In this document: positions 441-37,621 of the stretch, one piece after another
Layout: each line of letters begins with the position of its first letter
Position numbering within the stretch: the stretch's first letter is position 1
Assembly: GCA_030390025.1 (NCBI GenBank)
Contig: CM059432.1
Coordinates: 22,632,001 to 22,696,000, forward strand
Direction of reading: 5' to 3'
DNA length: 64,000 nt
Source of the DNA: Squalus acanthias
Lineage: Eukaryota
Notes under the pieces: model-generated
Told to the model about the DNA's origin: nothing
Database searches by the model: none
What the model saw: the letters and a program-made list of their open reading frames with translations, nothing else
Made by a program: the position numbers and the translations under genes

Positions 441-763
441 CCAGTCCTAGCATCCATATTCATCTTAATTAACTTATCCATATGGACTGAATCCAAGCCC
501 TTCATTTTATTGAAAACAACAACAACAACTTACATTTATATAGCACCTTTAATGTAGTAAAATATCCCAAGGCGCAAACCTCAGTCATATACCCTCTGAC
601 CTTATATTCCTCTGAAGTAAATACTCCAACTCTTAAAATATGCCCTAATAATAAGCCCTTAATACATAGATACTTAGATACATAGAAGATAGGAGCAGGA
701 GTAGGCCATCCGGCCCTTCGAGCCTGCTCCGCCATTTAATGAGATCATGGCTGATCCTCCAAT

Positions 764-3714
764 TCAGTATCCCGTCCCCGCCTTCTCTCCGTAACCCTTA
801 ACCCCTTTTGCCTGTAGAAATATATCTAATTCCCTCTTAAATATATTTAATGAGCTGGCGTACACTGCCCTCTGCGGCAATGAGTTCCACAGGTTCACCA
901 CCCTCTGAGTGAAGAATTTCCCCCTCATTTCTGTCCTAAATGGTTTAGCCCTTATCCTTAAATTATGTCCTCTAGTTCTGTTCTCACCCGCCAAGGGAAA
1001 CATTCCTTCTGCATCTAGTCTGTCTAGACCTGTCAGAATTTTATACACTTCTATGAGGTCCCCTCTCAATCTTCTAAACTCCAGTGTGTACATCCCTAAA
1101 CTACACAGTCTCTCCTCATAGGTCAATCCCGCCATTCCTGGTATCAGCCTGGTGAATCGCCGCTGCACCCCCTCCATGGCAAGAACATCTTTCCTCAGAT
1201 GAGGCGACCAAAACTGTACACAGTACTCGAGGTGTGGTCTCACCAGTGCCCTGTACAGCTGCAGCAAGGTATCCCTGTTCCTGTATTCCAACCCTTTTGC
1301 TATGAAGGCCAGCATACTGTTTGCCTTCTTGACCGCCTGTTGCACCTGCATGCTCGCCTTCAGTGACTGGTGTACAAGAACACCCAGGTCTCTCTGTACT
1401 TCCCCCTCTCCCAATTTATTGCCATTTAAATAATAATTTGCCCTCCTGTTCCTGCACCCAAGGTGGATAACTTCGCACTTGTCCACATTATAGTGCATCT
1501 GCCATTTATCCGCCCAATCACCCAGTCTGTCCAAATCGCTCTGGAGCTTCCTGGTCTCCTCCTCTGAGCCCACCCCCCCTCCTAGTTTAGTGTCGTCTGC
1601 AAATTTGGAAATGCTGCATCCGACTCCCTGATCCAGGTCATTAATGTAAATTGTGAACAGCTGGGGACCCAGGACAGATCCCTGTGGTACCCCACTTGTT
1701 ACTGCCTGCCATTCAGAAAATGAGCCGTTTATTCCAACTCTCTGTTTTCTATCTGACAGCCAGTTCTCTATCCACGTCAATACTTTCCCCTTTATCCCAT
1801 GAGCTTCAATTTTCCATGCTAATCTTTTATGCGGGACCTTATCGAAGGCCTTTTGGAAGTCCAGGTACACCACATCTACTGGCTCTCCCCCATCTATTTT
1901 ACCAGTTACTCCCTCAAAAAATTCCAATAGATTAGTCAAGCACGATTTACCCTTTGTAAATCCATGTTGACTCTGTCCTATCCTGTCCCCATTTGCTAAG
2001 TGCTCCGCTATTTCATCCTTAATGATGGACTCCAGCATTTTGCCCACAACTGATGTAAGGCTTACAGGTCTGTAATTACCTGCTTTTTCCCTACCCCCCT
2101 TTTTGAATAGTGGGTAACGTTAGCTACCCTCCAATCCATGGGCACTTTTCCCGAGTCTAATGAATTCTGAAAAATCATACTTAGTGCATCCGCTATCTCT
2201 AGGGCCACCTCCTTCAGTACCGTAGGATGCATGTTATCAGGCCCTGGGGATTTGTCCGCCTTCAATCCCTTTAGCTTCCTTAACACCATATCCTTAGAGA
2301 TATTGATTTGCGTCAGTTCCTCCTTTGCCAATGTCCCTATTTTTCCCGATATCCCAGGGAGGTTTTTTGTGTCTTCCTTCGTAAAGACTGACCCAAAGTA
2401 TGCATTTAGTTGGTCTGCCATTTCCTTATTTCCCGTTATATATTCCCCCGTATCTGACTGCAATGGACCAACTTTGGTTTTCACCAGTCTTTTCCTCTTG
2501 ATATACTTATAAAAGCTTTTGGAGTTAGTTTTTATATTTTCCGCCAGCTTGCTTTCGTAAGCTATTTTGCCCCTCTTGATTAAGCCCTTTGTCCTCCTTT
2601 GCTCCATCTTAAACTGTTCTCAATCTTCCGCTCTGGCGCTTTTTTTGGCTATTTTATACGCCCTATCTTTGGATTTTATGCTGTCTCTAATTTCCCCTGT
2701 TATCCACGGTTGAGTCACCTTTTTAGATTTCCTTTTATGCCAGATTGGTATAAACAATTTTTGCAATTTTGTCATTCTATCTTTAAATGCTTGCCATTGT
2801 TTATCTACCTCCAGTCCTCCCAGGAACGTTGTCCAATCAGACCTACTCAGTTCCCGTCTAATGGCATCATAATTCCCCTTGTTTAAATTCAGGACCTTAG
2901 TCTCTGAGTCAATTTCTTCGCTCTCCATTTCGAGTGAGAAATCGATCATGTTATGATCGCTCTGACCCAAGGGTCCCCGTACAACAAGATTACTAATTAG
3001 TCCCTTCTCATTGCACAGTACCCAGTCCAATATAGCCTGTTCCCGAGTTGGTTCCTCGACATATTGATCCAGATAACCATCCCTTAAACACTCAAGGAAT
3101 TCCTCCTCCTCATTATTTTTACTGATTAGGCTAGTCCAATCTATATGTAAGTTAAAGTCACCTATGATGACAGCTGTGCTCTTATTGCACGCTTCTCTAA
3201 TTTCCCTCGTGATGCCCTCCCCAACCTCTATTTTACTATTTGGAGGCCTATATACCACTCCTATTAATGTTTTTCGCCCCTCGCTATTTCTTAGCTCCAC
3301 CCATGCAGATTCTGTATTAACTGAGTTAATATCCTTCCTTTCAATTGCATTTATCCCCTCTTTTACCAGCAATGCTACCCCTCCTCCCTTTCTTTTTTGT
3401 CGATCCTTCCTAAATACTGAATACCCCTGTATGTTAAGCTCCCAGCCCTGCTCACCCTGCAACCATGTTTCCGTAATCCCAATTAGATCATAATTATTAA
3501 CCTCTATTTCCACAGCTAATTCATCTACCTTGTTCCTGATGCTTCTCGCATTAAGGTATAAAACCCTCAGGCTTTTTTTATGCTCATATTTTTTATGAAT
3601 TAGTTTGGCCCTTTGTTTTTTGTTCCTCACCCTTTTACCATTTATTTCTGTCTGCCTTTCACTTTCCTCTATTTCACTACATAGGTTTCTAGCCCGCTGC
3701 CATACTAGTTTAAA
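764..3714 (-). pseudogene. CR1 ORF2 (AP endonuclease + reverse transcriptase), disrupted
   Basis: Compared with copy B: TGG>TGA nonsense at 2620-2622 and a 1-bp deletion near 2112 (TGGGTAAC vs TGGGGTAAC); motifs LNARS, ETW, GDFN, SDH, QGSVLGP, FADD. Confidence 0.93.
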
Positions 3715-4652
3715 TGCTCCCGAACTGCTTTATCAAAAATTACCCCGAGAACATCAGTTCCATCTTTGCACAGGTGTAGACCGTCCCTTTTGTATAGGTC
3801 ACACCTACCACAAAACTGGTTCCAATGCCTCAAAAATTTAAAACCCTCCCTCTTACACCACTGCTCAAGCCACGTATTTAGCCTAACTATCCTGTTCTCT
3901 GTACTCTTACTAGCACGTGGCACTGGTAGTAATCCAGAGATTACTACCTTCGAGGTCCTACTTTTTAGCTTGGCTCCTAACTCCCTAAATTCTACTTGTA
4001 GGACCTCTTCCCTTTTTTTAGCTACGTCGTTGGTACCAACATGTATCACGACAACTGGCTGTTCCCCCTCCCCCTCCAGAATGTTCTGCACCCGCGCCGA
4101 GACATCCTTGACCCTTGCACCAGGGAGGCAACATACCATCCTGGAGTCTCGGTCGCGACCACAGAAACCCCTATCTATTCCCCTTACAATCGAATCCCCT
4201 ATTACTATAGCCCTGCCACTCTTTTTCCCTCCCTTCTTTGCAACAGAGCCAGTCATGGTGCCATGAGCCTGGCTGCTGGTGCCTTCCCCCGATGAGTCAT
4301 CCCCCCCGACAACAGCACCTAAGGCGGTGAACCTGTTGCTAAGGGAGACAACCCCAGGGGATTTCTGCACTACCTTCCTGCCCTTGCTCTGCCTTTTGGT
4401 CACCCATGTACTATCTACGCTGGCCTTAACCTGCGGTGTGACCAACTCACTAAATGTGCTATCCACAACCCTCTCAGAATCGTGGATGCTCCAAAGTGAG
4501 TCCATCCGCAGCTCAAGGGCCGTCATGCGGTCCCACATGAGCTGCAGCTGGACACACTTCCCGCACACATGGTTGTCAGGGACACAGGAAGCGTCCCTGA
4601 TTTCCCACATATTACAGGAGGAGCATGACACAGGTCCGAGCTCTACTGCCAT
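3705..4652 (-). CDS. CR1 ORF1 protein: N-terminal CxxC/CxxC zinc finger, coiled coil, SGNH esterase domain
   Basis: 315-aa open ATG ORF; CSSC...CGKC, LSNRF, GDS, GTND and DGLH motifs. Confidence 0.92.
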   Translation of the reverse strand: MAVELGPVSCSSCNMWEIRDASCVPDNHVCGKCVQLQLMWDRMTALELRMDSLWSIHDSERVVDSTFSELVTPQVKASVDSTWVTKRQSKGRKVVQKSPGVVSLSNRFTALGAVVGGDDSSGEGTSSQAHGTMTGSVAKKGGKKSGRAIVIGDSIVRGIDRGFCGRDRDSRMVCCLPGARVKDVSARVQNILEGEGEQPVVVIHVGTNDVAKKREEVLQVEFRELGAKLKSRTSKVVISGLLPVPRASKSTENRIVRLNTWLEQWCKREGFKFLRHWNQFCGRCDLYKRDGLHLCKDGTDVLGVIFDKAVREHLN

Positions 4653-5093
4653 GACTTAACCCTTATATTACTTTTTAATTTTCTAGTTTTAGTTTATTTA
4701 TTGACTTTTGTTTTCCCGAAGCTTACTTAGACCAATGTATACTGTACTCCTCTTATTCCTTTTTAAACTAACCAAATCCCACTAGTTTTAGTTTTACTTT
4801 CTAGGAAGGTTTGAGGAAAGTACTTACCAGTTAGTTTTACCTCCCTGGTCTTTCGCTGACTTCCCGGTCTTGTGTCCCCTTGGTCCTATGCCGACTTCCC
4901 GCTCCTCCCGGTTCCTGCCCTGCTGAAAAGAAACTGAGACCAAAAAATTTGTGACCTCTGTTTTTAGACTGCTAAAAGACTAGTAGGTTAGAGGAGGAGG
5001 GCGGGTGGGGGTTCCTACTCTGTAGGAACTCAGGTTTAAGCCACCACCCTCCTTAAATGCCATTCACCTGGGTGCTTCCCACCTGGTCCGCTT

Positions 5094-5639
5094 CCGGTCT
5101 TGTCTCTCCCGACAACAGCCTGTGAAAGAAAAGCCCGCGAAAGTTAGTTCAAATACTCACAGGACCTCCGGTCTCGTCTCTCCCGACAACAGCCTGTGAA
5201 AGAAAAGCCCGCGAAAGTGAGTTCAAATACTCACAGGACCTCCGGTCTCGTCTCTCCCGACAACAGCCTGTGAAAGAAAAGCCCGCGAAAGTGAGTTCAA
5301 ATACTCACAGGACCTCCGGTCTCGTCTCTCCCGACAACAGCCTGTGAAAGAAAAGCCCGCGAAAGTGAGTTCAAATACTCACAGGACCTCCGGTCTCGTC
5401 TCTCCCGACAACAGCCTGTGAAAGAAAAGCCCGCGAAAGTGAGTTCAAATACTCACAGGACCTCCGGTCTCATCTCTCCCGACAACAGCCTGTGAAAGAA
5501 AAGCCCGCGAAAGTGAGTTCAAATACTCACAGGACCTCCGGTCTCGTCTCTCCCGACAACAGCCTGTGAAAGAAAAGCCAGCGAAAGTGAGTTCAAATAC
5601 TCACAGGACCTCCGGTCTCGTCTCTCCCGACAACAGCCT
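5094..5639 (-). repeat. 74-bp tandem monomer array at the 5' end of CR1 copy A (~7.4 copies)
   Basis: Unit CCGGTCTCGTCTCTCCCGACAACAGCCTGTGAAAGAAAAGCCCGCGAAAGTGAGTTCAAATACTCACAGGACCT starts at 5094, 5168, 5242, 5316 and onward. Confidence 0.97.
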
Positions 5640-6126
5640 ATCATATTGGTCAGCCTCCCTTGCACCTCATCTGGAGTCGAAGGGGGGATAATTCAGTTGG
5701 TTGCACCTCCCGTTAGTGCCTTAAGAGGGCGCTAATGGGACGCAAAGCAACTAGCGCCCGGGCACAGCGATGTTTGCGCCGCTCGTAAAATTAACTAGAC
5801 ATTTTGCGGTGGCGCTAAACTTTACCACCGCGATCTCCTGCGCACGCAGATCTTGACATCATACGAGGGTGCAACGCCCTTGTGGCGCCCCGGAGCGGAA
5901 ATTGAGTGGCGCCCCCATCCTTTCCGCTTGGTGCAACCAACGACCGGAAGACTGGAACGCTCCCCAGTCGCTGTGGGGCTGGGGGGGGCGCTATTTAAAG
6001 AGGGCCTCTTCCTGTCTTTCTCTGTGGTTGACATTTTTGCACCACTCGTTCTGAGAGAGAGAGAGAGAGATTCGGAGAGAGAGAAAGAGAGACTTCTGCA
6101 TTGAGTCAACGCTGTGTGAGGTAGTT

Positions 6127-7335
6127 TTGGCTACTGATCATAACTTTGCAGGTACTTTGGTTTTTGACCTTCATAACTTTGATTGCCAAGAGACTCTGGG
6201 GGCTGCACTGATTGGGGGCGTCGTCCTGCACCACCAGAATCGGAGGACACAGAGACACAGAGAGAGAGTGGCAATCAACAGGTCTCTGTACAGGGGACCT
6301 TATCCTCCCAGGGTATATCGCCAACAATTCACATATATTAATATGTCTGAGGAGCAGTGTTTGCGAAGGCTGCGCTTCAGCAAGGAGGTAATCACTGAGC
6401 TCTGCCATCTGCTGCAGCCAGATCTGCAGCCTCAACTGAGGTCCAGGACGTCTCTGTCGGTGGCAGTGAAGATCACAGTGGCTCTGAACTTTTATGCCAC
6501 TGGCTCATTTCAATCAGCTACTGGGGACATCGCCAATATCTCCCAGTTCGCGGTGCATTGCTGCATCCATCAGGTCACAAGTGCCCTCTTTAAAAGGAGA
6601 CGAGAGTACATCTCTTTCCCCAATACCCCAGACAAGCAGCAAGAACTCGCAATGGGCTTTGCTAGGATAGCAGGCTTCCCCATGGTGCAGGGCGCCATTG
6701 ACTGCACGCATGTGGCTTTTCGTGCTCCGCATGAGAATGTCGAGGATTTCCGCAACAGAAAGGGGTTCCATTCCTTAAACGTTCAGTTGGTCTGTGACCA
6801 CAGACAGCTGATACTAGCTGTCAATGCCCACTATCCAGGCAGCTGCCACGATACATTCATCCTGCGCCAGACTACTGTGGCAGAACTTTTCCAGGCTCCG
6901 CATCAGCCAGTTGGTTGGCTTCTCGGGGACAAGGGATATCCACTGAGCACCTGGCTGATGACACTGCTCCGTACGCCCAACACCCCTGCTGAGCTGCGGT
7001 ACAACGAGAGCCATCAAGCTACCAGGAACATCGTTGAGCACACAATCGGCGTGCTCAAGCAACGGTTCCGCTGTCTGGACCATTCTGGAGGAGCCCTGCA
7101 GTACTCGCCTGAGCGAGTTTCCCACTTCGTAGTTGTGTGCTGCATGCTGCATAACATGGCAATCCTCAGGACCCAGCCAATGCCACCAGGCCTTGGAGCA
7201 CCACCAGAGGAGGAGGAGGAAGAGGAGGAGGAAGAGGAGGAGGATGATCATCAGCAGCACCAAGGCGGGAGGGAGGCCCACAATGTAGAAACTGGAAGGG
7301 CCGTCCGTCAACGGCTGATAGCAAGCCGCTTCTAG
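6127..7335 (+). CDS. Harbinger (HARBI1-like) DDE transposase
   Basis: Open frame with GAIDCTHV, NRKGFHSLNVQLVCD, PGSCHD, LLGDKGY, RNIVEHTIGVLKQRFRCL and an acidic tail; start uncertain (track start is TTG; CTG at 6196; first ATG at 6343). Confidence 0.92.
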   Translation: MATDHNFAGTLVFDLHNFDCQETLGAALIGGVVLHHQNRRTQRHRERVAINRSLYRGPYPPRVYRQQFTYINMSEEQCLRRLRFSKEVITELCHLLQPDLQPQLRSRTSLSVAVKITVALNFYATGSFQSATGDIANISQFAVHCCIHQVTSALFKRRREYISFPNTPDKQQELAMGFARIAGFPMVQGAIDCTHVAFRAPHENVEDFRNRKGFHSLNVQLVCDHRQLILAVNAHYPGSCHDTFILRQTTVAELFQAPHQPVGWLLGDKGYPLSTWLMTLLRTPNTPAELRYNESHQATRNIVEHTIGVLKQRFRCLDHSGGALQYSPERVSHFVVVCCMLHNMAILRTQPMPPGLGAPPEEEEEEEEEEEEDDHQQHQGGREAHNVETGRAVRQRLIASRF

Positions 7336-7634
7336 GCCCCTGCTGAGGAAATGGCTTCTGCCATTGAGAACAACATGAATGAAACCAACCCGCAACCCCT
7401 AAGCCGGCCAAGGCAGCAATGATTCCAAAGACCAAACATGTACATTTTGAATACAAAAACTTATTTATTTCACAAACTCTGTGTGTGTCATTTCCTCATG
7501 ACAAACTAATAGAAAGAAACACAAAAACACAGTCATTAACATAACTGGTTCTCATAACCTGGAGATAATGTTCAAAAGTTTGACCACGAACCTTAGCCTT
7601 TAATAAAAAAATGACCAACATTTTGTCACACCTC

Positions 7635-9453
7635 CTACTTTTTGCCCTTCGAGTGTGATCTCCTTCCCTTGCGCACTTTCCCCTTTCCCACCCTACTGCT
7701 CCTCCGTAATGGGACCTCAGTGGCTGCAGCAAGGCTGGTGGAAGGCTGCTGATTGTCAGAACCTGAGACTACAGATGCCCTTGAAGGACGGCCTCGACCA
7801 GCTCTGGGCCTGGAGGGCCCGGCTGCAGACTGCACCAACTCTGCATGGGCGGCAGCAGTCTGTCCTACAGGCGGTGGCAAGTGCAGTGGAGAAGTGACAG
7901 TGGTGGCAGCAGGAATGCTGTCATCTTGAGAGAGGACAGCAACTCCCTGCTCGACCAACACACTGGCACTCCCACAGGGCAGCACTTCAGCATCCAGAGC
8001 AATCTGCTGGAGCACAGATTACTGGCCTGCTGCGCCGCGGTGAGAGCCCCGGGGAAATGTGTACGAACCATCCAGGATGGCAGCAGTCAGTGCTCGCGTG
8101 GCCTCAATATGAGTTTGCAGGAGAGCAGTCAGAGATGGGATCACGGCAGCCAGTGACTGAATTGCAGCACTAAGCTTTAGTGTGGCATCCGCCTGTGCTA
8201 CAGCGAAGTGCTCCACACTCCTTGCCAGTGATTCAATGCATTCGGGCACCCTTCCCACTGCACCCATGAGCTCAGTGTGCATGTCTACCGCCTGGGTGTT
8301 CATTTCAGCGATGAGCCGCTCCTCCTCTGCGTCCAGTGCAGTAGGACTCGCTGGCATACTCTCCCTCCGGGGAGAAGGCCCCCGAGCTTCCCTACCCCCA
8401 TGGCATTCCTGCAGCCCACTAGGTCCTGGAGCTTCACCCTCATCAGACCCTTCCCCCCTGCTCCCCTCCAGGGAAGGCGTGTTCCCAGTGTGGGCATGGG
8501 CTTCCTTGGGAGAGGGTGGCGCTGATGCTCCGGCTTCCTCTTCCTCCTCGGCTGCAGCTTCACTCCCACTGGCAGCTTGAGGGCCCGTCTCCTCAGCTGG
8601 TGAATCACCATCTGAAAGCAGGGAGGTACAAGAGTGGCTTTAGCGTGAGGACAGGGGGGCAGTAAGGGAGGAATGAGTGCAGCGATTTAGTAAGTTGGAT
8701 TGTAAGTGTCAAATGTTGGTGTTGTGAGGGACAAGTGGAAGGACAGAGGTCAAAAAGGTGATGACCTTACCATTGCTGTCCAGAACGGGGTCGGTGTCTC
8801 CAGTGGCGACGGGACCGATCACCCGGCTTGCCACAATCCTGTGGACGCGCGCCTCAAGATCGCTGAGGGGTTGCAGCTGAGGCCGCCCTCCATCCGTCGG
8901 TGCTGCTGTCTCCTATTATGAGATAGCTTGGCCTGCAAGAAAAAGGACGGCATCTGAGTAAATATACAGCCATGGTCTTGCCTGATGTGCCTCCCATAGG
9001 TGAATAGCCCTTACTGTATGCAGCCATGGTCTTGCCTGATGTGCCTCCCATAGGTGAATAGCCCTTACTGTATGCAAAGTGTGGAATGTGCATGTGTGTT
9101 TCATGAGAGGGCCATAGGTGTTGGATGAGTGTTGTGCATTGGGGTTTTAAGACCCTCTGGCCATAGAGTGAGGTTGAGATGGAGGGATGGAGAGGTATTG
9201 AAAAAAAGCCACTCACCCTGACGATCCGAGTGAGGTCGTTGAACTTTTTTCGACATTGTATATGGGTCCTGGGCACCATGCTCCTGGAGGAGACGCTCTG
9301 AGCCACCTCCCTCCACACTCTTCTGTACTCGCGCGGCAAAGGCCTCCTGCCACTCTCAGGGAAGAGTATAGATCTTCTGCGCTCCACCGCGCCAACCAGA
9401 GCATCCAAGGCCTGCTCGCTGAAGCGCTGAGCTCGTTCTCTCACCCTCTCCAT
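7635..9453 (-). pseudogene. Harbinger Myb/SANT (MSANTD-like) DNA-binding partner gene, 3 exons, disrupted
   Basis: Exon 1 9453-9217 (RFSEQALDAL...WREVA...QCRKKFNDL, donor GTGAGT); exon 2 8932-8771 (acceptor TTGCAG, donor GTAAGG, 1-nt frameshift near 8899); exon 3 8611-7635 (acceptor TTTCAG, in-frame TAA at 8019-8021). Confidence 0.85.
8967..9076. repeat. 54-bp tandem duplication in intron 1 of the Myb/SANT gene
   Basis: CAGCCATGGTCTTGCCTGATGTGCCTCCCATAGGTGAATAGCCCTTACTGTATG at 8967 and 9021. Confidence 0.95.
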
Positions 9454-10274
9454 AGTCCTTGGCTGGAAGATTTAGGCACAGGTCTATCCAGGCTGAGATT
9501 CAAGGCTCCAATGAGCAGGGTGTGGCTGCAGTGCAAGATCGACCCTTCCCTTTAAGAACTGTCCGGCGCCAGTGTGTCTGTGTTCCATCGCTAACTGACA
9601 TCACCAGCGCTGCGCCCGCGCTCTGAGTTAGCGCCTCGCTCCTCGGCCTTTGTGCCTTAAGACAGGTGTGTAGCACCTGATTTAGCGCTCCAATCACCTC
9701 CAGGGGCGATAAAAGTCAAGTTTGCAGTCGGAGGCGATAATTAGCGACAGGCGCCAATCTTTGCGCCCGGCCGATAATTGCGCCCCAAATGGGGCGATAC
9801 TGAATTTCTCCCCCTAATTTTCTCTGCTACCTGTCGGACCAGAATCTGGATGGAATACTCTGAGAGCAGATGTATGAAAGCCTTTTATATCTGAGTTATA
9901 CTACTCTTTACTTTATACTCACTGGTCCTAGCAATACAACCTGAAATCTTATTTATAGTTAATATTGCTAGCACTCAACCTGATGTGGACCTCACTGGGT
10001 AATTTTCCATCTGTATAAAATAGCCGTTGATGGCACATTTTGAGGGGCATCAGGTGAAGAGCATTTTTGTAAACAAAATGGTGCTTGTGTAATCCTCTGC
10101 AGTTGAATAATCTCTCTGTGGGACACTCCTTCAAATAATTAAATACTTTTGAAGGCTCCCCACAAATATTGACACACTCCTCGGGACCCCCTGAAAACTG
10201 ACAACTTCTTAACTTTATAAGACATTGTCAACCAAACAAAGAAAGATAGTGCTATAAGTAAAGACTGTTCTCCT

Positions 10275-22417: not shown

Positions 22418-23710
22418 GCAAAGTCAACACGGATTTATGAAAGGGAAATCGTGTTTGATAAATCTGTGACTAGCAGAATAGACAAGGGGGAGCCAGTGGA
22501 TGTGGTGTATTTGGATTTTCAGAAGGCATTCGATAAGGTGCCACACAAGAGGTTATTAAACAAAATTAGGGCTCATGGGACTGGGGGTAATATATTAGCA
22601 TTGATTGAGGATTGGTTAACGGACAAAAAACAGAGAGTAGGAATAAATGGGTCATTTTCGGGTTGGCAGGCTGTAACTAGTGGGGTACCGCAAGGATCAG
22701 TGCTTGGGCCTCAGCTATTGACAATCTACATCAATGATTTGTATGAGGGGACCAAATGTAATATATCCAAGTTTGCTGATGATACAAAGTTGGGTGGGAA
22801 TGTAAGTTGTGAGGAGGATGCAAGGAGGCTTCAAGGGGATATAGACAGGCTAAGTGATAGGGCAAGAACATATCAAATGGAATATAATGTGGAGAAATGT
22901 GAAGTTATCCACTTTGGTAGGAAAAATAGAAAAATAGAAAAGCTGAGTATTTTTAAATGATGAGAGATTGGGAAATGTTGGTGTTCAGAGGGACCTGGGT
23001 GTCCTTGTACACAAATCACTGAAAGTTAACATGCAGGTACAGCAAGCAATTAGGAAAGCAAATGGTATGTTGACCTTTATTACAAGAGGATTTGAGTATA
23101 AGAGTAAAGACGTTTTACTGCAATTATATAGCGCCCTGGTGAGACCACACCTGGAGTATTGTGTACAGTTTTGGTCTCCTTACCTAAGGAAGGATATACT
23201 TGCCATAGAGGGAGTGCAACGAAGGTTCACCAGACAGGTTCCTAGGATGGGGAAATTGTCCGATGAGGAGAGATTGAGTAGACTCGGCCTATATTCTCTA
23301 GAGTTTAGAAGAATGAGAGGTGATCTCATTGAAACATACAAAATTCTTACAGGGTTTGACAGGATAGATGCAGGGATAGGATGTTTTCCCTGGCTGGGGA
23401 GTCTAGAACCAGGGGTCACAGTCTCAGAATAAGGGATCTGCCATTTAGGACTGAGATGAGGAGAAATTCCTTCACTCAGAGGGCGGTGAATCTTTGGAAT
23501 TCTCTGCCCCAGAGGGCTGTGGAGGCTCAGTCATTAAGTATACTCAAGACAGAGATCGATAGATTTTTGAATATCAAGGGAATCAAGGGATATGGGAATA
23601 GTTCAGGAAAGTGGAGATACATAGATACATAGAAGATAGGAGCAGGAGTAGGCCATCCGGCCCTTCGAGCCTGCTCCGCCATTTAATGAGATCATGGCTG
23701 ATCCTCCAAT

Positions 23711-26662
23711 TCAGTATCCCGTCCCCGCCTTCTCTCCGTAACCCTTAACCCCTTTTGCCTGTAGAAATATATCTAATTCCCTCTTAAATATATTTAATGA
23801 GCTGGCGTACACTGCCCTCTGTGGCAATGAGTTCCACAGGTTCACCACCCTCTGAGTGAAGAAATTCCCCCTCATTTCTGTCCTAAATGGTTTAGCTCTT
23901 ATCCTTAAATTATGTCCTCTAGTTCTGTTCTCACCCGCCAAGGGAAACATTCCTTCTGCATCTAGTCTGTCTAGACCTGTCAGAATTTTATACACTTCTA
24001 TGAGGTCCCCTCTCAATCTTCTAAACTCCAGTGTGTACATCCCTAAACTACATAGTCTCTCCTCATAGGTCAATCCCGCCATTCCTGGTATCAGCCTGGT
24101 GAATCGCCGCTGCACCCCCTCCATGGCAAGAACATCTTTCCTCAGATGAGGCGACCAAAACTGTACACAGTACTCGAGGTGTGGTCTCACCAGTGCCCTG
24201 TACAGCTGCAGCAAGGTATCCCTGTTCCTGTATTCCAACCCTTTTGCTATGAAGGCCAGCATACCGTTTGCCTTCTTGATCGCCTGTTGCACCTGCATGC
24301 TCGCCTTCAGTGACTGGTGTACAAGAACACCCAGGTCTCTCTGTACTTCCCCCTCTCCCAATTTATTGCCATTTAAATAATAATTTGCCCTCCCGTTCCT
24401 GCACCCAAGGTGGATAACTTCGCACTTGTCCACATTATAGTGCATCTGCCATTTATCCGCCCAATCACCCAGTCTGTCCAAATCGCTCTGGAGCTTCCTG
24501 GTCTCCTCCTCTGAGCCCACCCCCCCTCCTAGTTTAGTGTCGTCTGCAAATTTGGAAATGCTGCATCCGACTCCCTGATCCAGGTCATTAATGTAAATTG
24601 TGAACAGCTGGGGACCCAGGACAGATCCCTGTGGTACCCCACTTGTTACTGCCTGCCATTCAGAAAATGAGCCGTTTATTCCAACTCTCTGTTTTCTATC
24701 TGACAGCCAGTTCTCTATCCACGTCAATACTTTCCCCTTTATCCCATGAGCTTCAATTTTCCCTGCTAATCTTTTATGTGGGACCTTATCGAAGGCCTTT
24801 TGGAAGTCCAGGTACACCACATCTACTGGCTCTCCCCCATCTATTTTACCAGTTACTCCCTCAAAAAATTCCAATAGATTAGTCAAGCACGATTTACCCT
24901 TTGTAAATCCATGTTGACTCTGTCCTATCCTGTCCCCATTTGCTAAGTGCTCCGCTATTTCATCCTTAATGATGGACTCCAGCATTTTGCCCACAACTGA
25001 TGTAAGGCTTACAGGTCTGTAATTACCTGCTTTTTCCCTACCCCCCTTTTTGAATAGTGGGGTAACGTTAGCTACCCTCCAATCCATGGGCACTGTTCCC
25101 GAGTCTAATGAATTCTGAAAAATCATACTTAGTGCATCCGCTATCTCTAGGGCCACCTCCTTCAGCACCCTAGGATGCATGTTATCAGGCCCTGGGGATT
25201 TGTCCGCCTTCAATCCCTTTAGCTTCCTTAACACCATATCCTTAGAGATATTGACTTGCGTCAGTTCCTCCTTTGCAAATGTCCCTATTTTTCCCGATAT
25301 CCCAGGGAGGTTTTTTGTGTCTTCCTTCGTAAAGACTGACCCAAAGTATGCATTTAGTTGGTCTGCCATTTCCTTATTTCCCGTTATATATTCCCCCGTA
25401 TCTGACTGCAATGGGCCAACTTTGGTTTTCACCAGTCTTTTCCTCTTGATATACTTATAAAAGCTTTTGGAGTTAGTTTTTATATTTTCCGCCAGCTTGC
25501 TTTCGTAAGCTATTTTGCCCCTCTTGATTAAGCCCTTTGTCCTCCTTTGCTCTATCTTAAACTGTTCCCAATCTTCCGCTCTGGCGCTTTTTTTGGCTAT
25601 TTTATACGCCCTATCTTTGGATTTTATGCTGTCTCTAATTTCCCCTGTTATCCACGGTTGAGTCACCTTTTTAGATTTCCTTTTATGCCAGATTGGTATA
25701 AACAATTTTTGCAATTTTGTCATTCTATCTTTAAATGCTTGCCATTGTTTATCTACCTCCAGTCCTCCCAGGAACGTTGTCCAATCAGACCTACTCAGTT
25801 CCCGTCTAATGGCATCATAATTCCCCTTGTTTAAATTCAGGACCTTAGTATCTGAGTCAATTTCTTCGCTCTCCATTTCGAGTGAGAAATCGATCATGTT
25901 ATGATCGCTCTGACCCAAGGGTCCCCGTACAACAAGATTACTAATTAGTCCCTTCTCATTGCACAGTACCCAGTCCAATATAACCTGTTCCCGAGTTGGT
26001 TCCTCGACATATTGATCCAGATAACCACCCCTTAAACACTCAAGGAATTCCTCCTCCTCATTATTTTTACTGATTAGGCTATTCCAATCTATATGTAAGT
26101 TAAAGTCACCTATGATGACAGCTGTGCTCTTATTGCACGCTTCTCTAATTTCCCTCGTGATGCCCTCCCCAACCTCTATTTTACTATTTGGAGGCCTATA
26201 TACCACTCCTATTAATGTTTTTCGCCCCTCGCTATTTCTTAGCTCCACCCATATAGATTCTGTATTAACTGAGTTAATATCCTTCCTTTCAATTGCATTT
26301 ATCCCTTCTTTTACCAGCAATGCTACCCCTCCTCCCTTTCTTTTTTGTCGATCCTTCCTAAATACTGAATACCCCTGTATGTTAAGCTCCCAGCCCTGCT
26401 CACCCTGCAACCATGTTTCCGTAATCCCAATTAGATCATAATTATTAACCTCTATTTCCACAGCTAATTCATCTACCTTGTTCCTGATGCTTCTCGCATT
26501 AAGGTATAAAACCCTCAGGCTTTTTTTATGCTCACATTTTTTATGAATTAGTTTGGCCCTTTGTTTTTTGTTCCTCACCCTTTTACCATTTATTTCTGTC
26601 TGCCTTTCACTTTCCTCTATTTCACTACATAGGTTTCTAGCCCGCTGCCATACTAGTTTAAA
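23711..26662 (-). CDS. CR1 ORF2: AP endonuclease + reverse transcriptase (no initiator ATG; probably entered by -1 frameshift)
   Basis: Frame open from the TTTAAAC at 26662-26656 to the stop at 23711; LNARS, ETW, GDFN, SDH, QGSVLGP, FADD; track start at 26578 is GTG. Confidence 0.93.
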   Translation of the reverse strand, partial: FKLVWQRARNLCSEIEESERQTEINGKRVRNKKQRAKLIHKKCEHKKSLRVLYLNARSIRNKVDELAVEIEVNNYDLIGITETWLQGEQGWELNIQGYSVFRKDRQKRKGGGVALLVKEGINAIERKDINSVNTESIWVELRNSEGRKTLIGVVYRPPNSKIEVGEGITREIREACNKSTAVIIGDFNLHIDWNSLISKNNEEEEFLECLRGGYLDQYVEEPTREQVILDWVLCNEKGLISNLVVRGPLGQSDHNMIDFSLEMESEEIDSDTKVLNLNKGNYDAIRRELSRSDWTTFLGGLEVDKQWQAFKDRMTKLQKLFIPIWHKRKSKKVTQPWITGEIRDSIKSKDRAYKIAKKSARAEDWEQFKIEQRRTKGLIKRGKIAYESKLAENIKTNSKSFYKYIKRKRLVKTKVGPLQSDTGEYITGNKEMADQLNAYFGSVFTKEDTKNLPGISGKIGTFAKEELTQVNISKDMVLRKLKGLKADKSPGPDNMHPRVLKEVALEIADALSMIFQNSLDSGTVPMDWRVANVTPLFKKGGREKAGNYRPVSLTSVVGKMLESIIKDEIAEHLANGDRIGQSQHGFTKGKSCLTNLLEFFEGVTGKIDGGEPVDVVYLDFQKAFDKVPHKRLAGKIEAHGIKGKVLTWIENWLSDRKQRVGINGSFSEWQAVTSGVPQGSVLGPQLFTIYINDLDQGVGCSISKFADDTKLGGGVGSEEETRKLQSDLDRLGDWADKWQMHYNVDKCEVIHLGCRNGRANYYLNGNKLGEGEVQRDLGVLVHQSLKASMQVQQAIKKANGMLAFIAKGLEYRNRDTLLQLYRALVRPHLEYCVQFWSPHLRKDVLAMEGVQRRFTRLIPGMAGLTYEERLCSLGMYTLEFRRLRGDLIEVYKILTGLDRLDAEGMFPLAGENRTRGHNLRIRAKPFRTEMRGNFFTQRVVNLWNSLPQRAVYASSLNIFKRELDIFLQAKGVKGYGEKAGTGY

Positions 26663-27600
26663 TGCTCCCGAACTGCTTTATCAAAAATTACCCCGAGAAC
26701 ATCAGTTCCATCTTTGCACAGGTGTAGACCGTCCCTTTTGTATAGGTCACACCTACCACAAAACTGGTTCCAATGCCTCAAAAATTTAAAACCCTCCCTC
26801 TTACACCACTGCTCAAGCCACGTATTTAGCCTAACTATCCTGTTCTCTGTACTCTTACTAGCACGTGGCACTGGTAGTAATCCAGAGATTACTACCTTCG
26901 AGGTCCTACTTTTTAGCTTGGCTCCTAACTCCCTAAATTCTACTTGTAGGACCTCTTCCCTTTTTTTAGCTACGTCGTTGGTACCAACATGTATCACGAC
27001 AACTGGCTGTTCCCCCTCCCCCTCCAGAATGTTCTGCACCCGCGCCGAGACATCCTTGACCCTTGCACCAGGGAGGCAACATACCATCCTGGAGTCTCGG
27101 TCGCGACCACAGAAACTCCTATCTATTCCCCTTACAATCGAATCCCCTATTACTATAGCCCTGCCACTCTTTTTCCCTCCCTTCTTTGCAACAGAGCCAG
27201 TCATGGTGCCATGAGCCTGGCTGCTGGTGCCTTCCCCCGATGAGTCATCCCCCCCGACAACAGCACCTAAGGCGGTGAACCTGTTGCTAAGGGAGACAAC
27301 CCCAGGGGATTTCTGCACTACCTTCCTGCCCTTGCTCTGCCTTTTGGTCACCCATGTACTATCTACGCTGGCCTTAACCTGCGGTGTGACCAACTCACTA
27401 AATGTGTTATCCACAACCCTCTCAGAATCGTGGTTGCTCCAAAGTGAGTCCATCCGCAGCTCAAGGGCCGTCATGCGGTCCCACATGAGCTGCAGCTGGA
27501 CACACTTCCCGCACACATGGTTGTCAGGGACACAGGAAGCGTCCCTGATTTCCCACATGTTACAGGAGGAGCATGACACAGGTCCGAGCTCTACTGCCAT
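26653..27600 (-). CDS. CR1 ORF1 protein (zinc finger, coiled coil, SGNH esterase)
   Basis: 315-aa ATG ORF with GDS, GTND, DGLH. Confidence 0.93.
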   Translation of the reverse strand: MAVELGPVSCSSCNMWEIRDASCVPDNHVCGKCVQLQLMWDRMTALELRMDSLWSNHDSERVVDNTFSELVTPQVKASVDSTWVTKRQSKGRKVVQKSPGVVSLSNRFTALGAVVGGDDSSGEGTSSQAHGTMTGSVAKKGGKKSGRAIVIGDSIVRGIDRSFCGRDRDSRMVCCLPGARVKDVSARVQNILEGEGEQPVVVIHVGTNDVAKKREEVLQVEFRELGAKLKSRTSKVVISGLLPVPRASKSTENRIVRLNTWLEQWCKREGFKFLRHWNQFCGRCDLYKRDGLHLCKDGTDVLGVIFDKAVREHLN

Positions 27601-28046
27601 GACTTAACCCTTATATTACTTTTTAATTTTCTAGTTTTAGTTTATTTATTGACTTTTGTTTTCCCGAAGCTTACTTAGACCAATGTATACTGTACTCCTC
27701 TTATTCCTTTTTAAACTAACCAAATCCCACTAGTTTTAGTTTTACTTTCTAGGAAGGTTTGAGGAAAGTACTTACCAGTTAGTCTTACCTCCCTGGTCTT
27801 TCGCTGACTTCCCGGTCTTGTGTCCCCTTGGTCCTACGCCGACTTCCCGCTCCTCCCGGTTCCTGCCCTGCTGAAAAGAAACTGAGACCAAAAAATTTGT
27901 GACCTCTGTTTTTAGACTGCTAAAAGACTAGTAGGTTAGAGGAGGAGGGCGGGTGGGGGTTCCTACTCTGTAGGAACTCGGGTTTAAGCCACCACCCTCC
28001 TTAAATGCTGTTCACCTGGGTGCTTCCCACCTGGTCCGCTTCCGGT

Positions 28047-28597
28047 CTCTCCGCTCCCGACACTGGCCTCTGCAAAAAAAGCCCGCGAAAGTGAGTTTAA
28101 ATACTCACTGTGCTGCTGCTCTCTCCGCTCCCGACACTGGCCTCTGCAAAAAAAGCCCGCGAAAGTGAGTTTAAATACTCACTGTGCTGCTGCTCTCTCC
28201 GCTCCCGACACTGGCCTCTGCAAAAAAAGCCCGCGAAAGTGAGTTTAAATACTCACTGTGCTGCTGCTCTCTCCGCTCCCGACACTGGCCTCTGCAAAAA
28301 AAGCCCGCGAAAGTGAGTTTAAATACTCACTGTGCTGCTGCTCTCTCCGCTCCCGACACTGGCCTCTGCAAAAAAAGCCCGCGAAAGTGAGTTTAAATAC
28401 TCACTGTGCTGCTGCTCTCTCCGCTCCCGACACTGGCCTCTGCAAAAAAAGCCCGCGAAAGTGAGTTTAAATACTCACTGTGCTGCTGCTCTCTCCGCTC
28501 CCGACACTGGCCTCTGCAAAAAAAGCCCGCGAAAGTGAGTTTAAATACTCACTGTGCTGCTGCTCTCTCCGCTCCCGACACTGGCCTCTGCAAAAAA
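28047..28597 (-). repeat. 74-bp tandem monomer array at the 5' end of CR1 copy B (~7.4 copies)
   Basis: Unit CTCTCCGCTCCCGACACTGGCCTCTGCAAAAAAAGCCCGCGAAAGTGAGTTTAAATACTCACTGTGCTGCTGCT, period 74. Confidence 0.97.
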
Positions 28598-33811: not shown

Positions 33812-34737
33812 ATGGCAGGGGAGGCAGTGAAATGTTCCTCCTGCAGAATGTTTGAGGTGAGGGACGCCGTAGGTGTCCCTGCTGATTACACCTGTGGGAA
33901 GTGCACCCATCTCCAGCTCCTCGAAAACCGTGTTAGGGAACTGGAGCTGGAGCTGGATGAACTTCGGATCATTCGGGAGGCAGAGGAGGTCATAGATAGA
34001 AGCTTCAGGGATGTAATTACTCCAAAGCATGAAGATAGATGGGTGACGGTGAGAGGGGCTAGGAGGAAGCAGTCAGTGCAGGGATCCTCTGTGGTCGTTC
34101 CCCTCAGTAACAGGTATACCGCTTTGAATACTGTTGAGTGGGACGACTTACCAGTGGTAAGCCATGGTGACCGGATCTCCGGCGCTGGGTCCGTCCCTGT
34201 GGCTCAGAAGGGAAGGGGGGAGAGCAGGAGAGCAATAGTTATTGGGGACTCAATAGTCAGAGGGACAGATAGGAGGTTCTGTGGCAGCAAAAGAGACTCA
34301 CGGATGGTATGTTGCCTCCCGGGTGCCAGGGTCCGTGACGTCTCGGACCGTGTTTTCAGAATCCTCAAAGGGGAGGGGAACAATCGCAAGTCGTGGTACT
34401 CCTCGGTACCAACGACATAGGTAGGAGAAGGGACGGGGATTTAAAACAGGAATTTAGGGAGCTAGGTTGGAAGCTGAGAGCCAGTACAAACCATGTTGTA
34501 ATTTCTGGTTTGTTGCCGGTGCCACGTGCTAGCGAGTTGAGGAACAGGGAGAGAGTGCAGATAAACACGTGGCTGCAGGGATGGTGCAGCGGGGAGGGTT
34601 TCAGTTATGTGGATAATTGGAGCACATTCTGGGGAAGGTGGGACCTGTACAAACAGGACGGTTTGCACCTGAACCAGAGGGGCACCAATATCCTGGGAGG
34701 GAAATTTGCTACGGCTCTTCGGGGGGGTTTAAACTAA
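33812..34737 (+). pseudogene. CR1 ORF1 (zinc finger + SGNH esterase), one frameshift near 34375
   Basis: ORFs 33812-34420 and 34393-34737 are consecutive halves (GDS; then GTND, DGLH). Confidence 0.9.
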
Positions 34738-37621
34738 TTTGTCAGGGGGATGGGAAAAAGGGCTGTAGTCCAGGAGCCAGTGGTGAGTGTAGGGAGGTAC
34801 TGAGGAGGGTATCAAGGTCGCAGGAATGTACCGGCAGACAGGAAGATGGCTTGAAGTGTGTCTACTTCAATGCAAGGAGCATCCGGAATAAGGTAGGAGA
34901 ACTTGGAGCGTGGATTGGTACTTGGGACTACGATGTGGTGGCCATTACGGAGACATGGTTAGAACAGGGACAGGAATGGTTGTTGGAAGTTCCGGGGTAT
35001 AGATGTTTCTGTAAGAGTAGGGAAGTTGGTAAGAAAGGTGGAGGAGTAGCATTGTTAATCAAGGATAGTTTAACAGCGGCAGAAAGGCAGTTCGAGGGGG
35101 ATCTGCCGTCTGAGGTAATATGGGCTGAAGTTAGAAATAGGAAAGGAGCGGTCACGTTGTTAGGAGTTTTCTACAGGCCCCCAAATAGTAATAGAGATGT
35201 GGAGGAAGAAATTGCAAAGCAGATTATGAATAGGTGTGGAGGTCACAGAGTAGTTGTCATGGGTGACTTCAACTTTCCAAATATTGATTGGAACCTTTAT
35301 AGGTCAAACAGTTCGGATGGGATAGTTTTTGCACAGTGTGTGCAGGACGGTTTCCTGACACAATATGTGGATAGGCCGACAAGAGCTGGGGCCACGTTGG
35401 ATTTGGTACTGGGTAATGAATCGGGCCAAGTGTTTGATTTGTATGTGGGAGAGCACTTTGGAGATAGTGACCACAATTCGGTAACTTTCACTATTGCAAT
35501 GGAGAGAGATAGGGCCATACGGCAGGGCAGGGTTTATAATTGGGGGAGGGGTAATTATGATGCGATTAGGCAAGAATTAGGGAGTATAAGATGGGAACAG
35601 AAACTATCAGGGAAAGGCACAAACGAAAAGTGGAGCTTTTTCATGGAGCAATTACTGCGTGTCCTTGATAGGTATGTCCCTGTCAGGCAGGGAGGAAATG
35701 GCTGAGTGAGAGAACCATGGTTCACAAAAGAGGTTGAATGTCTAGTCAAGAGGAAAAAGGAAGCGTATGTAAGGATGAGAAAACAAGGTTCAGTTGGGTC
35801 GATTGAGGGGTACAAGGTAGCAAGGAATGAGCTAAAAAAAGAGCTTAGGAGAGCTAGGAGGGGGCATGAGAAGTCCTTGGCGGGTCGGATCAAGAAAAAC
35901 CCCAAGGCCTTTTACTCTTATGTGAGAAATAAAAGAATGACCAGGGTGAGGGTAGGGCCGGTCAAGGACAGTAGTGGGAACTTGTGCATGGAGTCAGAAG
36001 AGATAGGAGAGGTGATGAATGAATACTTTTTGTCAGTGTTCACCGAGGAGAGGGGCCATGTTCTTGAGGATGAGAGTGTGATAAAGGTGGATAGGCTGGA
36101 GGTGGTAGATGTTCTGAGGGAAGATGTTTTAGCAATTTTGAAGAACCTGAGGGTCGATAAGTCCCCTGGGCCAGATGGGATATATCCTAGGATTCTTTGG
36201 GAGGCAAGGGAGGAGATTGCAGAGCCTCTGGCTTTGATCTTTGGGTCCTCACTGTCCACGGGAATGGTGCCAGAGGACTGGAGAGTGGTGAATGTTGTTC
36301 CTCTCTTCAAGAAAGGAAATAGGAATGACCCTGGTAATTATAGGCCGGTTAGTCTTACTTCGGTGGTTGGTAAGATAATGGAAAAGGTCCTGAGGGATAG
36401 GATTTATGACCATTTGGAAAGGGGCAACTTAATCAGGGATAGTCAACACGGATTCGTGAAGGGTAAGTCTTGCCTAACAAATTTGATTGAATTCTTTGAG
36501 GAGGTAACTAAGTGTGTAGATGAAGGTAGAGCAGTTGATGTCGTATACATGGATTTTAGTAAGGCGTTTGATAAGGTTCCCCATGGTCGGCTCATGAAGA
36601 AAGTAAGGAGTTGTGGGATAGAGGGAAATTTGGCCGATTGGATAAGTAACTGGCTATCTCATAGAAGGCAGAGGGTGGTGGTGGATGGAACATTTTCGGA
36701 CTGGAGACCAGTTACCAGCGGTGTGCCACAGGGGTCGGTGCTGGGTCCTCTGCTGTTTGTGATTTTTATCAATGACTTGGAGGAGGGGACTGAAGGGTGG
36801 ATCAGTAAATTTGCTGATGACACCAAGATTGGTGGAGCAGTGGATGAGGTGGAGGGCTGTTGTAGGCTGCAAAGAGACATTGATAGGATGCAGAGCTGGG
36901 CTGAAAAATGGCAGATGGAATTTAACCATTAAGTGCGAGGTGATTCATTTTGGTAGGGCAAATTTGAATAAGGATTACAGGGTCAACGGCAGGGTTCTGA
37001 GGAACGTGGAGGAGCAGAGGGATCTGGGGGTTCATATCCACAGATCTCCGAAGGTTGCCACTCAAGTGGATAGAGCAGTAAAGAAGGCCTATGGTGTGTT
37101 GGCGTTTATTAACAGAGGGTTTGAGTTTAAGAACCGTGAGGTTATGCTGCAACTGTACAGGACCTTGGTGAGACCACATTTGGAATATTGTGTGCAGTTC
37201 TGGTCACCTCACTATAGGAAGGACGTGGAAGCATTGGAAAGAGTGCAAAGGAGATTTACCAGGATGCTGCCTGGTTTGGGGGGGAGGTCTTATGAGGAAA
37301 GATTGAGGGAGTTGAGGCTTTTCTCTTTAGATGAGAGGCGACTTAATAGAGGTTTATAAGATGATGAGGGGGATAGATAGAGTGGATGTTCAGAGACTAT
37401 TTCCTCGGGTAGAGGCAGCTGTTACAAGGGGGCATAACTATAAGGTGCATGGGGGGAGATATAGAAGGGATGTCCGAGGTAGATTCTTTACTCAGAGAGT
37501 GGTTGGGGTGTGGAATGGACTGCCTGGTGTGATAGTGGAGTCGGACACTTTAGGAACTTTCAAGCGGTTATTGGATAAGCACATGGAGCACACCAGAGTG
37601 ATAGGGAGTGTGATAGCTTGA
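34728..37621 (+). pseudogene. CR1 ORF2 (APE-RT), disrupted
   Basis: Stop at 35703-35705; frame breaks near 36930 and 37335; FNARS, GDFN, SDH, FADD. Confidence 0.92.

Follow-up and report, generated by a model that had tools for sequence, protein, structure and literature searches.

The 64-kb window analysed here (64,000 nucleotides of the Squalus acanthias genome) carries CR1-type LINEs of two families. Copy B, of family AB, is full-length and is laid out as tandem 5' monomers, an esterase ORF1, an endonuclease-reverse transcriptase (RT) ORF2 and a microsatellite tail. A second element of that family, copy A, has a broken ORF2; the window copy of family C has a broken ORF1 and stops within ORF2. 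RNA runs that hold the stretch exist. The features are as follows:

23615..28552, minus strand: copy B, full-length CR1-type LINE of family AB, limits set by self-BLAST, Pfam domains and ends
26653..27600, minus strand: copy B ORF1, 315 aa, N-terminal Cys motif and SGNH/GDSL esterase domain, C-terminus ...VREHLN*
26656..26662, minus strand: copy B slippery-type heptamer T_TTA_AAC, in phase with ORF1 (its final two codons and one wobble base)
26653..26655, minus strand: copy B ORF1 stop TAG, directly 3' of the heptamer (context CAT TTA AAC TAG)
26641..26645, minus strand: copy B G run, +18..+22 from the first T of the heptamer, after a 10-nt spacer; candidate stimulator
26507..26652, minus strand: copy B basic linker, variable, -1 frame, from the junction to the endonuclease
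23711..26656, minus strand: copy B ORF2, -1 frame, 981 aa from a CTA codon, APE endonuclease and RT
25895..25897, minus strand: first in-frame ATG of copy B ORF2 (SDHNM), end of the endonuclease domain, codon 254 from CTA
668-5604, minus strand: copy A element, family AB, ORF2 broken
3705..3714, minus strand: copy A junction, heptamer 3714-3708 and TAG
34728..34749, plus strand: family C junction, heptamer 34728-34734, TAA 34735-34737, GGGGG 34745-34749

Copy B has the parts of a canonical vertebrate CR1. ORF1 is of the esterase type (PF13472, E 4e-11) and matched the LINE esterase structure 4C1B (E 2e-29); ORF2 carries the APE endonuclease and RT domains (PF03372, PF14529 and PF00078 by Pfam); and both copies end in TATG/TATC-type short repeats, poly-A being unique to Zenon (PMC13343379). 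The domain layout and the abundance in sharks and rays are those of canonical vertebrate CR1 (subgroup 7, ORF1 type IVB; PMC4120745; PMC13343379), and in sharks and rays CR1-group elements account for 22-34% of the genome (PMC13343379). Our tree was built from ORF1 only, and the nearest named ORF1 homologs were shark and ray proteins.

An earlier note on this DNA described an in-phase heptamer with an abutting stop in three copies, and its positions proved exact for copy B, copy A and family C. The -1 frame of copy B is open from the heptamer into the endonuclease-RT ORF, as it had also said, and stays open through the endonuclease and RT to 23711, with 156 nt between the start of the heptamer and the YLNARS motif. 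All three junctions are real, but copies A and B differ by 34 mismatches over about 4.2 kb and belong to one family, so the window holds two independent lineages and not three. The string TTTAAACTRR was observed five times in the window against 0.71 expected; two of the five matches (4762 and 27710) lie antisense in 5' UTRs and are not junctions.

Conservation of the heptamer, stop and reading frame

The survey of CR1 junctions that the note had proposed was run, and the heptamer, its phase and the adjacent stop were found to be kept, at synonymous sites, across divergent CR1 lineages. In the S. acanthias genome, TTTAAAC followed by a stop ends ORF1 in 126 of 133 unique clustered junctions (10 lineages); T_TTA_AAC with a stop was also present in amniote-type CR1s, and G_TTA_AAC in the distant element L061. 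Among 20 lineage representatives, TTA and AAC were each found in 20/20, which does not amount to 20 independent trials, since the representatives were chosen among copies with a heptamer-like site and the lineages share ancestry. The wobble base before TTA was T in 19/20, despite seven amino acids at that codon (A, G, D, H, S, C, T). The sole variant heptamer was that of L061, and a GUU deviation of this kind is tolerated in equine arteritis virus (PMC3542737, excerpt). Elsewhere in ORF1, TTA makes up 29 of 213 Leu codons (14%) and AAC 37 of 73 Asn codons, and just one of 34 other conserved degenerate columns uses a single codon. The fixation of TTA, AAC and the wobble T at synonymous sites therefore points to a signal kept at the nucleotide level. 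The stop after the heptamer varies (TAG 10, TAA 8, TGA 2). At the protein level, ORF1 ended in LN in 41/57 proteins of one homolog set and 42/89 of a second, tails of other lengths included; LN-ending homologs came from sharks, rays, a frog, an eel and a lizard. After LN, the commonest ORF1 ends were GN (9) and KN (2, tied with four others). These ends, known here from proteins alone, are what G_GGA_AAC and A_AAA_AAC would encode, and both heptamers are among the most shifty sites (PMC5009743, excerpt).

Read in the -1 frame, the linker had no stop in 131 of 153 copies, compared with 2 and 4 in the other frames (some loci counted twice), and the distance from heptamer to endonuclease, 111 to 264 nt, came in multiples of three. 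Lineages E and F each had one copy in phase and one out of phase. At L067, the X_XXY_YYZ-like sequence G_GAT_TTT lies one codon before the stop, ORF2 is in the -1 frame and its first Met falls inside the endonuclease. The junctions thus show three properties of eukaryotic -1 signals: an in-phase X_XXY_YYZ (YYY = AAA/UUU, Z = A/C/U; PMC3542737, excerpt), a downstream ORF open in the -1 frame, and conservation at synonymous sites. Within family AB, which has 2004 exact junction copies in the genome, freeing the heptamer added 15 copies and freeing the next 7 nt added 44; the direction is the expected one but is confounded by base composition, and we do not count it as support. Searches of viral contigs, plasmids and prokaryote genomes gave no usable LINE junctions.

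A conserved G run without a shared RNA fold

The note saw no convincing shared downstream pseudoknot and none was confirmed, but it overlooked a conserved GGGGG that starts 11 nt 3' of the heptamer. G occupies positions +18 to +22 in 19, 20, 18, 20 and 17 of the 20 representatives, and the run spans two wobble positions, against a background of G at 182 of 664 linker wobble positions. This run, conserved without a shared RNA fold, is new here. At the junctions, a search for a stem-loop, a pseudoknot stem or a long-range partner common to the lineages found none, and the fold (stem-loop or pseudoknot) that a structure-stimulated signal would have 5-9 nt past the heptamer was likewise absent; -1 signals usually have a 3' structure as their second element. 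Single-sequence folds were no better than shuffles (z-scores -1.5 to +1.9), and consensus folds were empty for the own-genome lineages (consensus energy 0 for nine) and for all lineages jointly; one 6-bp consensus hairpin was found, only in a 3-member amniote-type group. An Rfam search of the junction returned no match, and a G-quadruplex was rejected as stimulator, being present in the MFE of only 6/20. Partners of the G run sought in 16 long elements were not consistent: a site about 425 nt upstream (the VCCLPGA codons) entered the top-four lists in 5/16, but conservation at its wobble bases does not exceed that elsewhere, which makes it a weak lead.

A motif is present at a spacing of about 11 nt, which resembles that of protein-stimulated signals; any binder is a candidate only. 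In PRRSV, the nsp2 frameshift is stimulated by nsp1-beta/PCBP on CCCANCUCC, a short motif that acts without a fold from a position 11 nt downstream of the shift site (PMC5009743, excerpt). The likeness is one of spacing only: the CR1 motif is G-rich, its heptamer is different and its binder is putative.

The run in copy B reads GCGGG, compared with GGGGG in the family. This G>C variant occurs genome-wide only in copies A and B, at different insertion sites, and if one is the daughter of the other the G run is not essential. It is also the source of the junction peptide WQRARN that the note had reported, which is private to these two copies, whereas 2004 copies read WQGARN.

Expression of ORF2

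Reviews still describe the way in which LINEs translate ORF2 as unresolved, and the model is drawn from L1 and SART1. The heptamer, the adjacent stop and the G run together suggest that the RT of the elements described here is likely made as a fusion, not by restart as in human L1. Judging from their sequences, these esterase-type CR1 LINEs probably express ORF2 by a programmed -1 frameshift at the heptamer that joins it to ORF1. The survey thus favours the gag-pol-like fusion proposed in the note; its argument from a missing AUG applies to some lineages only, and an in-frame Met stands ahead of the endonuclease in seven of the ten own-genome lineages (D, E, F, G, H, I, J) and in L061. The predicted order of events is as follows: most ribosomes would terminate at the adjacent stop and release ORF1p. 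In a minority, tRNA-Leu and tRNA-Asn would re-pair one base back and translation would continue as ...HLN-LVWQG.... The fusion would comprise all 315 ORF1 residues, the variable linker and the 981-residue endonuclease-RT, 1296 aa in all (about 147 kDa). The note raised the stop codon as a possible pause; the pause would come from that codon acting with the G run 11 nt downstream, which is likely a further element of the signal, lacks a shared fold and may be bound by a protein.

The main alternative process is termination followed by reinitiation: a ribosome that has finished ORF1 would start again close to the stop, on an ATG or another codon of the -1 frame, and TTTAAAC with the G run would provide a context for termination or tethering. 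Both LINEs studied, mammalian L1 and silkworm SART1, are reported to work in this way: ORF2 of a bicistronic RNA depends on ORF1 translation and a separate ORF2p is made after a 63-nt spacer or a UAAUG overlap (PMC2881922; PMC5972666), unlike the fusion predicted for CR1; the helper structure of SART1, moreover, lies downstream (PMC5972666). Some junctions would suit it: the stop and start overlap as TAATG in lineage H and L101, and an ATG lies 2 nt past the stop in six amniote-type loci (L062, L064, L065, L066, L073, L089). Lineages with an ATG adjoining the stop may additionally reinitiate. No start codon is conserved, however, and the codons after the stop differ freely; an AUG overlapping or near the stop is absent in AB, C and seven other own-genome lineages. 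In AB and C the earliest ATG past the stop lies in another frame, and the first in-frame Met comes only at codons 254 and 166, the latter inside the endonuclease. UGGGA (TURBS motif 1), sought 40-90 nt upstream, occurs within about 80 nt in only 9/20 and at scattered positions. Reinitiation would also leave the X_XXY_YYZ fixed at synonymous sites, and the L061 and L067 variants, unexplained, and we consider it improbable as the general route.

Far less probable is that ORF1p requires its C-terminal Leu-Asn, or retains it as a frozen relic, and that ORF2 is translated from its own downstream start by leaky scanning or internal entry. In the majority of vertebrate CR1 proteins LN does lie 26 residues past DGLH, and most lineages carry some Met in the linker. 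Selection on the protein, however, cannot fix TTA, AAC and the wobble T; LN also ends 32- and 39-residue tails and is missing from teleost L2-type esterases; and the linker Mets stand at unrelated codons, 3 to 57, with none in AB and C. Slimmer still is the chance of a spliced or shorter ORF2 RNA whose acceptor, CAG/G, would lie just 3' of the stop. An AG at +17/+18 in 13/20 representatives and donor-like GGTAAG/GGTGAGT 0.9-1.5 kb upstream in 11/16 long elements would fit, but the AG is missing in 7/20, there is no pyrimidine tract (7-10 of 20 nt) and the heptamer is again left unexplained. Stop readthrough was ruled out for CR1, as ORF2 lies outside frame 0 and the stop is not constant, and so was transcriptional slippage, no long homopolymer preceding the stop.

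The frameshift reading has close viral counterparts. U_UUA_AAC stands in the same phase at the end of coronavirus (IBV) ORF1a, opening the polymerase ORF (ORF1a/1b), and retroviral gag-pol and the GUU variant of equine arteritis virus are fellow -1 signals (PMC3542737; PMC5009743; excerpts of both). CR1 differs in being a non-LTR retrotransposon, in the stop directly after the heptamer, in the G run that takes the place of a detectable fold 5-9 nt downstream, and in the lack of any protease domain, by Pfam, to cut the fusion. Among APE-type non-LTR elements, a legend in one review states that Dictyostelium TRE5-A and TRE3-A need a -1 frameshift for ORF2 (PMC5911963, excerpt); clade, host and ORF1 differ from those of CR1. 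'Frameshift' and 'overlap' are absent from the main texts of PMC4120745 and PMC13343379, and no report of a CR1 frameshift was found in the literature searched, a coverage that excludes key older papers. Some canonical CR1 lineages have lost ORF1 (PMC13343379), so that ORF2 in this clade can function without a fusion.

If true, the fusion would alter the N-terminus that CR1 annotations predict for ORF2, set the ratio of ORF1p to RT, tether RT to the esterase ORF1p and blur the textbook line between LTR and non-LTR elements; it may also account for failures of CR1 constructs that begin at the first ATG. The proposed signal is compact (25 nt), and a fold-free stimulator would be a rare kind of -1 signal. 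More tentatively, a gag-pol-like -1 frameshift may have operated in this dominant retrotransposon clade of sharks, reptiles and birds since before the shark-amniote split, through a fold-free signal made up of the slippery heptamer, the stop beside it and, 11 nt downstream, a GGGGG bound by a protein (a host G-run binder or ORF1p itself), with related esterase LINEs reaching the same fusion by other slippery heptamers or UGA readthrough; we put this forward as possible, not as expected. After LN, the commonest ORF1 ends were GN (9) and KN (2, tied with four others). These ends, known here from proteins alone, are what G_GGA_AAC and A_AAA_AAC would encode, and both heptamers are among the most shifty sites (PMC5009743, excerpt).

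Conservation of the ORF1–ORF2 junction

In copies A and B (CR1-type LINEs of one family, AB) and in the divergent family C (junction at 34728, plus strand), ORF1 closes with the heptamer T_TTA_AAC and an adjoining stop; all three junctions were confirmed where the earlier note had placed them. One feature serves for reference:

23615-28552, minus strand: copy B, full-length LINE

Its ORF1 (315 aa) carries an SGNH esterase domain and has its nearest named homologs in sharks and rays. Its ORF2 (981 codons, endonuclease and RT) lies in the -1 frame, and the first in-frame ATG falls at 25897, the end of the endonuclease, as previously described. With 34 mismatches between them over about 4.2 kb, copies A and B were taken as one lineage.

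Own-genome loci, from sequence searches (one with an amniote-type query) and 39 fixed-coordinate stretches of 10 kb, sorted into 10 lineages and two rearranged single copies. The ORF1-end HMM (230 matches over the loci collected by that stage) finishes 13 codons short of the ORF1 end, and so is an anchor blind to the heptamer. The earlier note had proposed a -1 frameshift yielding an ORF1–ORF2 fusion and suggested a survey of CR1 junctions. That survey bore out its expectation: heptamer and stop, with ORF2 in the -1 frame, were kept in several metagenome loci and, identical sequences removed, in 126 of 133 own-genome junctions, a non-random sample since the searches return top-scoring copies. 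All seven misses belong to lineage D and carry a small change at or adjoining the site. The count covers loci other than L295-L322 and leaves out L169, L175, the second L042 match and L252, which either had no endonuclease match and no site where expected or an ORF1 end running off the stretch; the first three are each one base off.

Among 78 metagenome loci, 13 matched both ORF1 and endonuclease. TTTAAAC plus stop was present in seven (L062, L064, L065, L073, L074, L094, L101), and G_TTA_AAC plus stop in L061; the site had decayed in L066, and L107, L116 and L136 had another layout, with ORF2 in frame past a TGA. The remaining locus, L067, has G_GAT_TTT one codon before TAA (ORF1 end near 870-880), with ORF2 in the -1 frame and its first Met inside the endonuclease; L067 is a distant element, and its slippery site, unlike the one above, was seen in one copy only. 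The heptamer was also present in L070, L078, L079 and L089, but their sequence ends or breaks ahead of the endonuclease. L064, L065, L073 and L074, which we take to be avian, clustered with a lizard ORF1 protein (support 97/98 in the ORF1 tree), hence the label amniote-type.

At the protein level, LN was the C-terminal end in 41 of 57 ORF1 homologs with a short tail past DGxH (named sources include Mobula, Hypanus, Mustelus, Stegostoma, Narcine and Hyla). In a wider set of 89 (Zootoca and Synaphobranchus among those named) the ends were LN in 42, closing tails of 25 to 39 residues, GN in 9, KN in 2 and a final residue other than N in 32. The LN end was absent from the teleost L2-type esterases compared. 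A Hypanus sabinus gene model (P0032) crosses the junction as ...ASREGFKLNLQGAG..., with the -1 frame joined to ORF1, and is probably a copy with an indel. Mislabelled CR1 ORF1 sequences also turned up in a hydrolase labelled Pseudomonas aeruginosa (P0009, 57% identical to copy B ORF1), under ray 'transmembrane protein 204' isoform labels (P0056, P0057) and in a 506-nt Providencia contig (L165), likely through contamination or gene-model capture.

Constraint on the heptamer and the downstream G run

Between lineages, identity over the C-terminal half of ORF1 spans 24-87%. All 20 lineage representatives closed ORF1 with the codons TTA (20/20) and AAC (20/20), and the preceding base was T in 19, over seven amino acids; the stop was TAG, TAA or TGA. 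A heptamer-like site was a condition for choosing these representatives, which leaves 126/133 as the unbiased figure, and shared ancestry of the lineages inflates any probability of heptamer conservation. Across 14 representatives with a long open ORF1, TTA made up 29 of 213 other Leu codons and AAC 37 of 73 other Asn codons, and a single codon was used in 1 of 34 other conserved degenerate columns. Judged from this codon usage, the constraint on the heptamer is one acting on RNA.

A run of five Gs occupies +18 to +22, counted from the initial T of the heptamer (G in 19, 20, 18, 20 and 17 of the 20 representatives, position by position), past a variable stretch at +11 to +16. Two of its positions are -1-frame wobble sites, at which G has a background frequency of 27%, and GGG accounts for 20 of 65 Gly codons; selection for glycine alone leaves the run unexplained. 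It begins 11 nt past the heptamer, the spacing given for a protein-bound PRRSV motif in PMC5009743, and 7 nt past the stop, which would be the usual spacer length if ribosomes slip while the stop occupies the A site.

RNA folding does not account for the run. Single-sequence junction folds gave z-scores near zero, and consensus folds were empty for own-genome lineages and for all lineages together, in keeping with the earlier failure to see a convincing shared pseudoknot. No steady long-range partner of the G run was found among 16 long elements, and the junction had no Rfam match. Local hairpins were seen in L078, L094 and L101, one amniote-type subgroup (6 bp, +12 to +31 from the heptamer, G run in the loop), and, by eye or in single folds, about 30 nt downstream in L064, L073, L074 and L079.

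Production of ORF2

The heptamer junction is real, conserved and specific; from it we infer the mechanism. Viral -1 frameshifts are called from in-phase heptamers of this pattern (PMC3542737, section 13), and ORF2 of these CR1 elements is probably made by such a shift. Tandem slippage would give a ...HLN-LVWQG... junction and a predicted fusion of 315+981 = 1296 aa (1294 aa and 146.4 kDa as computed from a start two codons short). From stop to endonuclease, 131 of 153 copies kept the -1 frame open, against 2 for frame 0 and 4 for +1 (a few loci counted twice), and the distance, 111 to 264 nt, came in multiples of three, with one copy out of phase in each of lineages E and F; the linker is thus probably translated in the ORF2 frame. 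Its sequence is not conserved.

The main rival, termination-reinitiation, in which ORF2 starts anew after the ORF1 stop, we regard as unlikely. The earlier statement that no ATG precedes the endonuclease holds for the young families AB and C, which count against reinitiation, but not for 7 of 10 own-genome lineages, whose linker Met would suit it, as would TAATG in lineage H and L101 and an ATG 2 nt past the stop in six amniote-type loci. The linker Mets nevertheless lie at unrelated positions, the first ATG is out of frame in D, G, AB, C, I, L061 and L094, UGGGA is not conserved, and the heptamer is left without explanation. Frameshifting and reinitiation may possibly be mixed in lineages with a nearby ATG. 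All other readings together, splicing included, seem very improbable; the junction lacks a pyrimidine tract.

A review (PMC5911963) states that Dictyostelium TRE5-A and TRE3-A depend on a -1 frameshift, the sole LINE precedent found. No CR1 frameshift report appeared in the literature searched (mostly titles and abstract starts) or in passages of PMC3894237, PMC4120745, PMC3905857, PMC2881922, PMC5972666, PMC2734521 and PMC5006619. The first 300,000 characters of PMC5009743 contain 'CR1' 0 times, and 'frameshift', 'slip' and 'overlap' are absent from the portion of PMC13343379 covered. A prior remark in the first CR1 ORF papers or Repbase is a real, if lesser, possibility.

Related elements and other observations in the window

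A distant group of esterase-ORF1 LINEs carries ORF2 in the same frame as ORF1, past one TGA whose next two bases are CT, CA or AT (ORF1 ends L102, L103, L107, L108, L116, L117, L136; also L090, L091, L113). In 7 of 10 no further stop interrupts the frame before the endonuclease, making TGA readthrough a candidate second route to an ORF1–ORF2 fusion; in-frame Mets lie ahead of the endonuclease, so readthrough is not forced.

The copy B 5' UTR (about 27770-27870, minus strand) holds a strong splice-donor-like CTG|GTAAGT and an acceptor-like TTTCTTTTCAG; by raw count, 11 of 16 long elements (L295-L307 among them) have donor-like motifs 0.9-1.5 kb ahead of the heptamer. Tandem monomers of ~74 nt form the 5' ends of copy B (28046-28597) and copy A (5093-5639). 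A G>C change 12 nt past the heptamer (3696, 26644) occurs genome-wide only in these 2 copies, against the G form in 2004; their flanks and outer 5' monomers differ despite this private change, for which the candidate explanations are local retrotransposition, gene conversion and misassembly. A DDE_Tnp_4 transposase (6055-7335, plus) and a Myb/SANT protein (8854-9471, minus) mark a DNA transposon at 6055-9471, presumably Harbinger-type.
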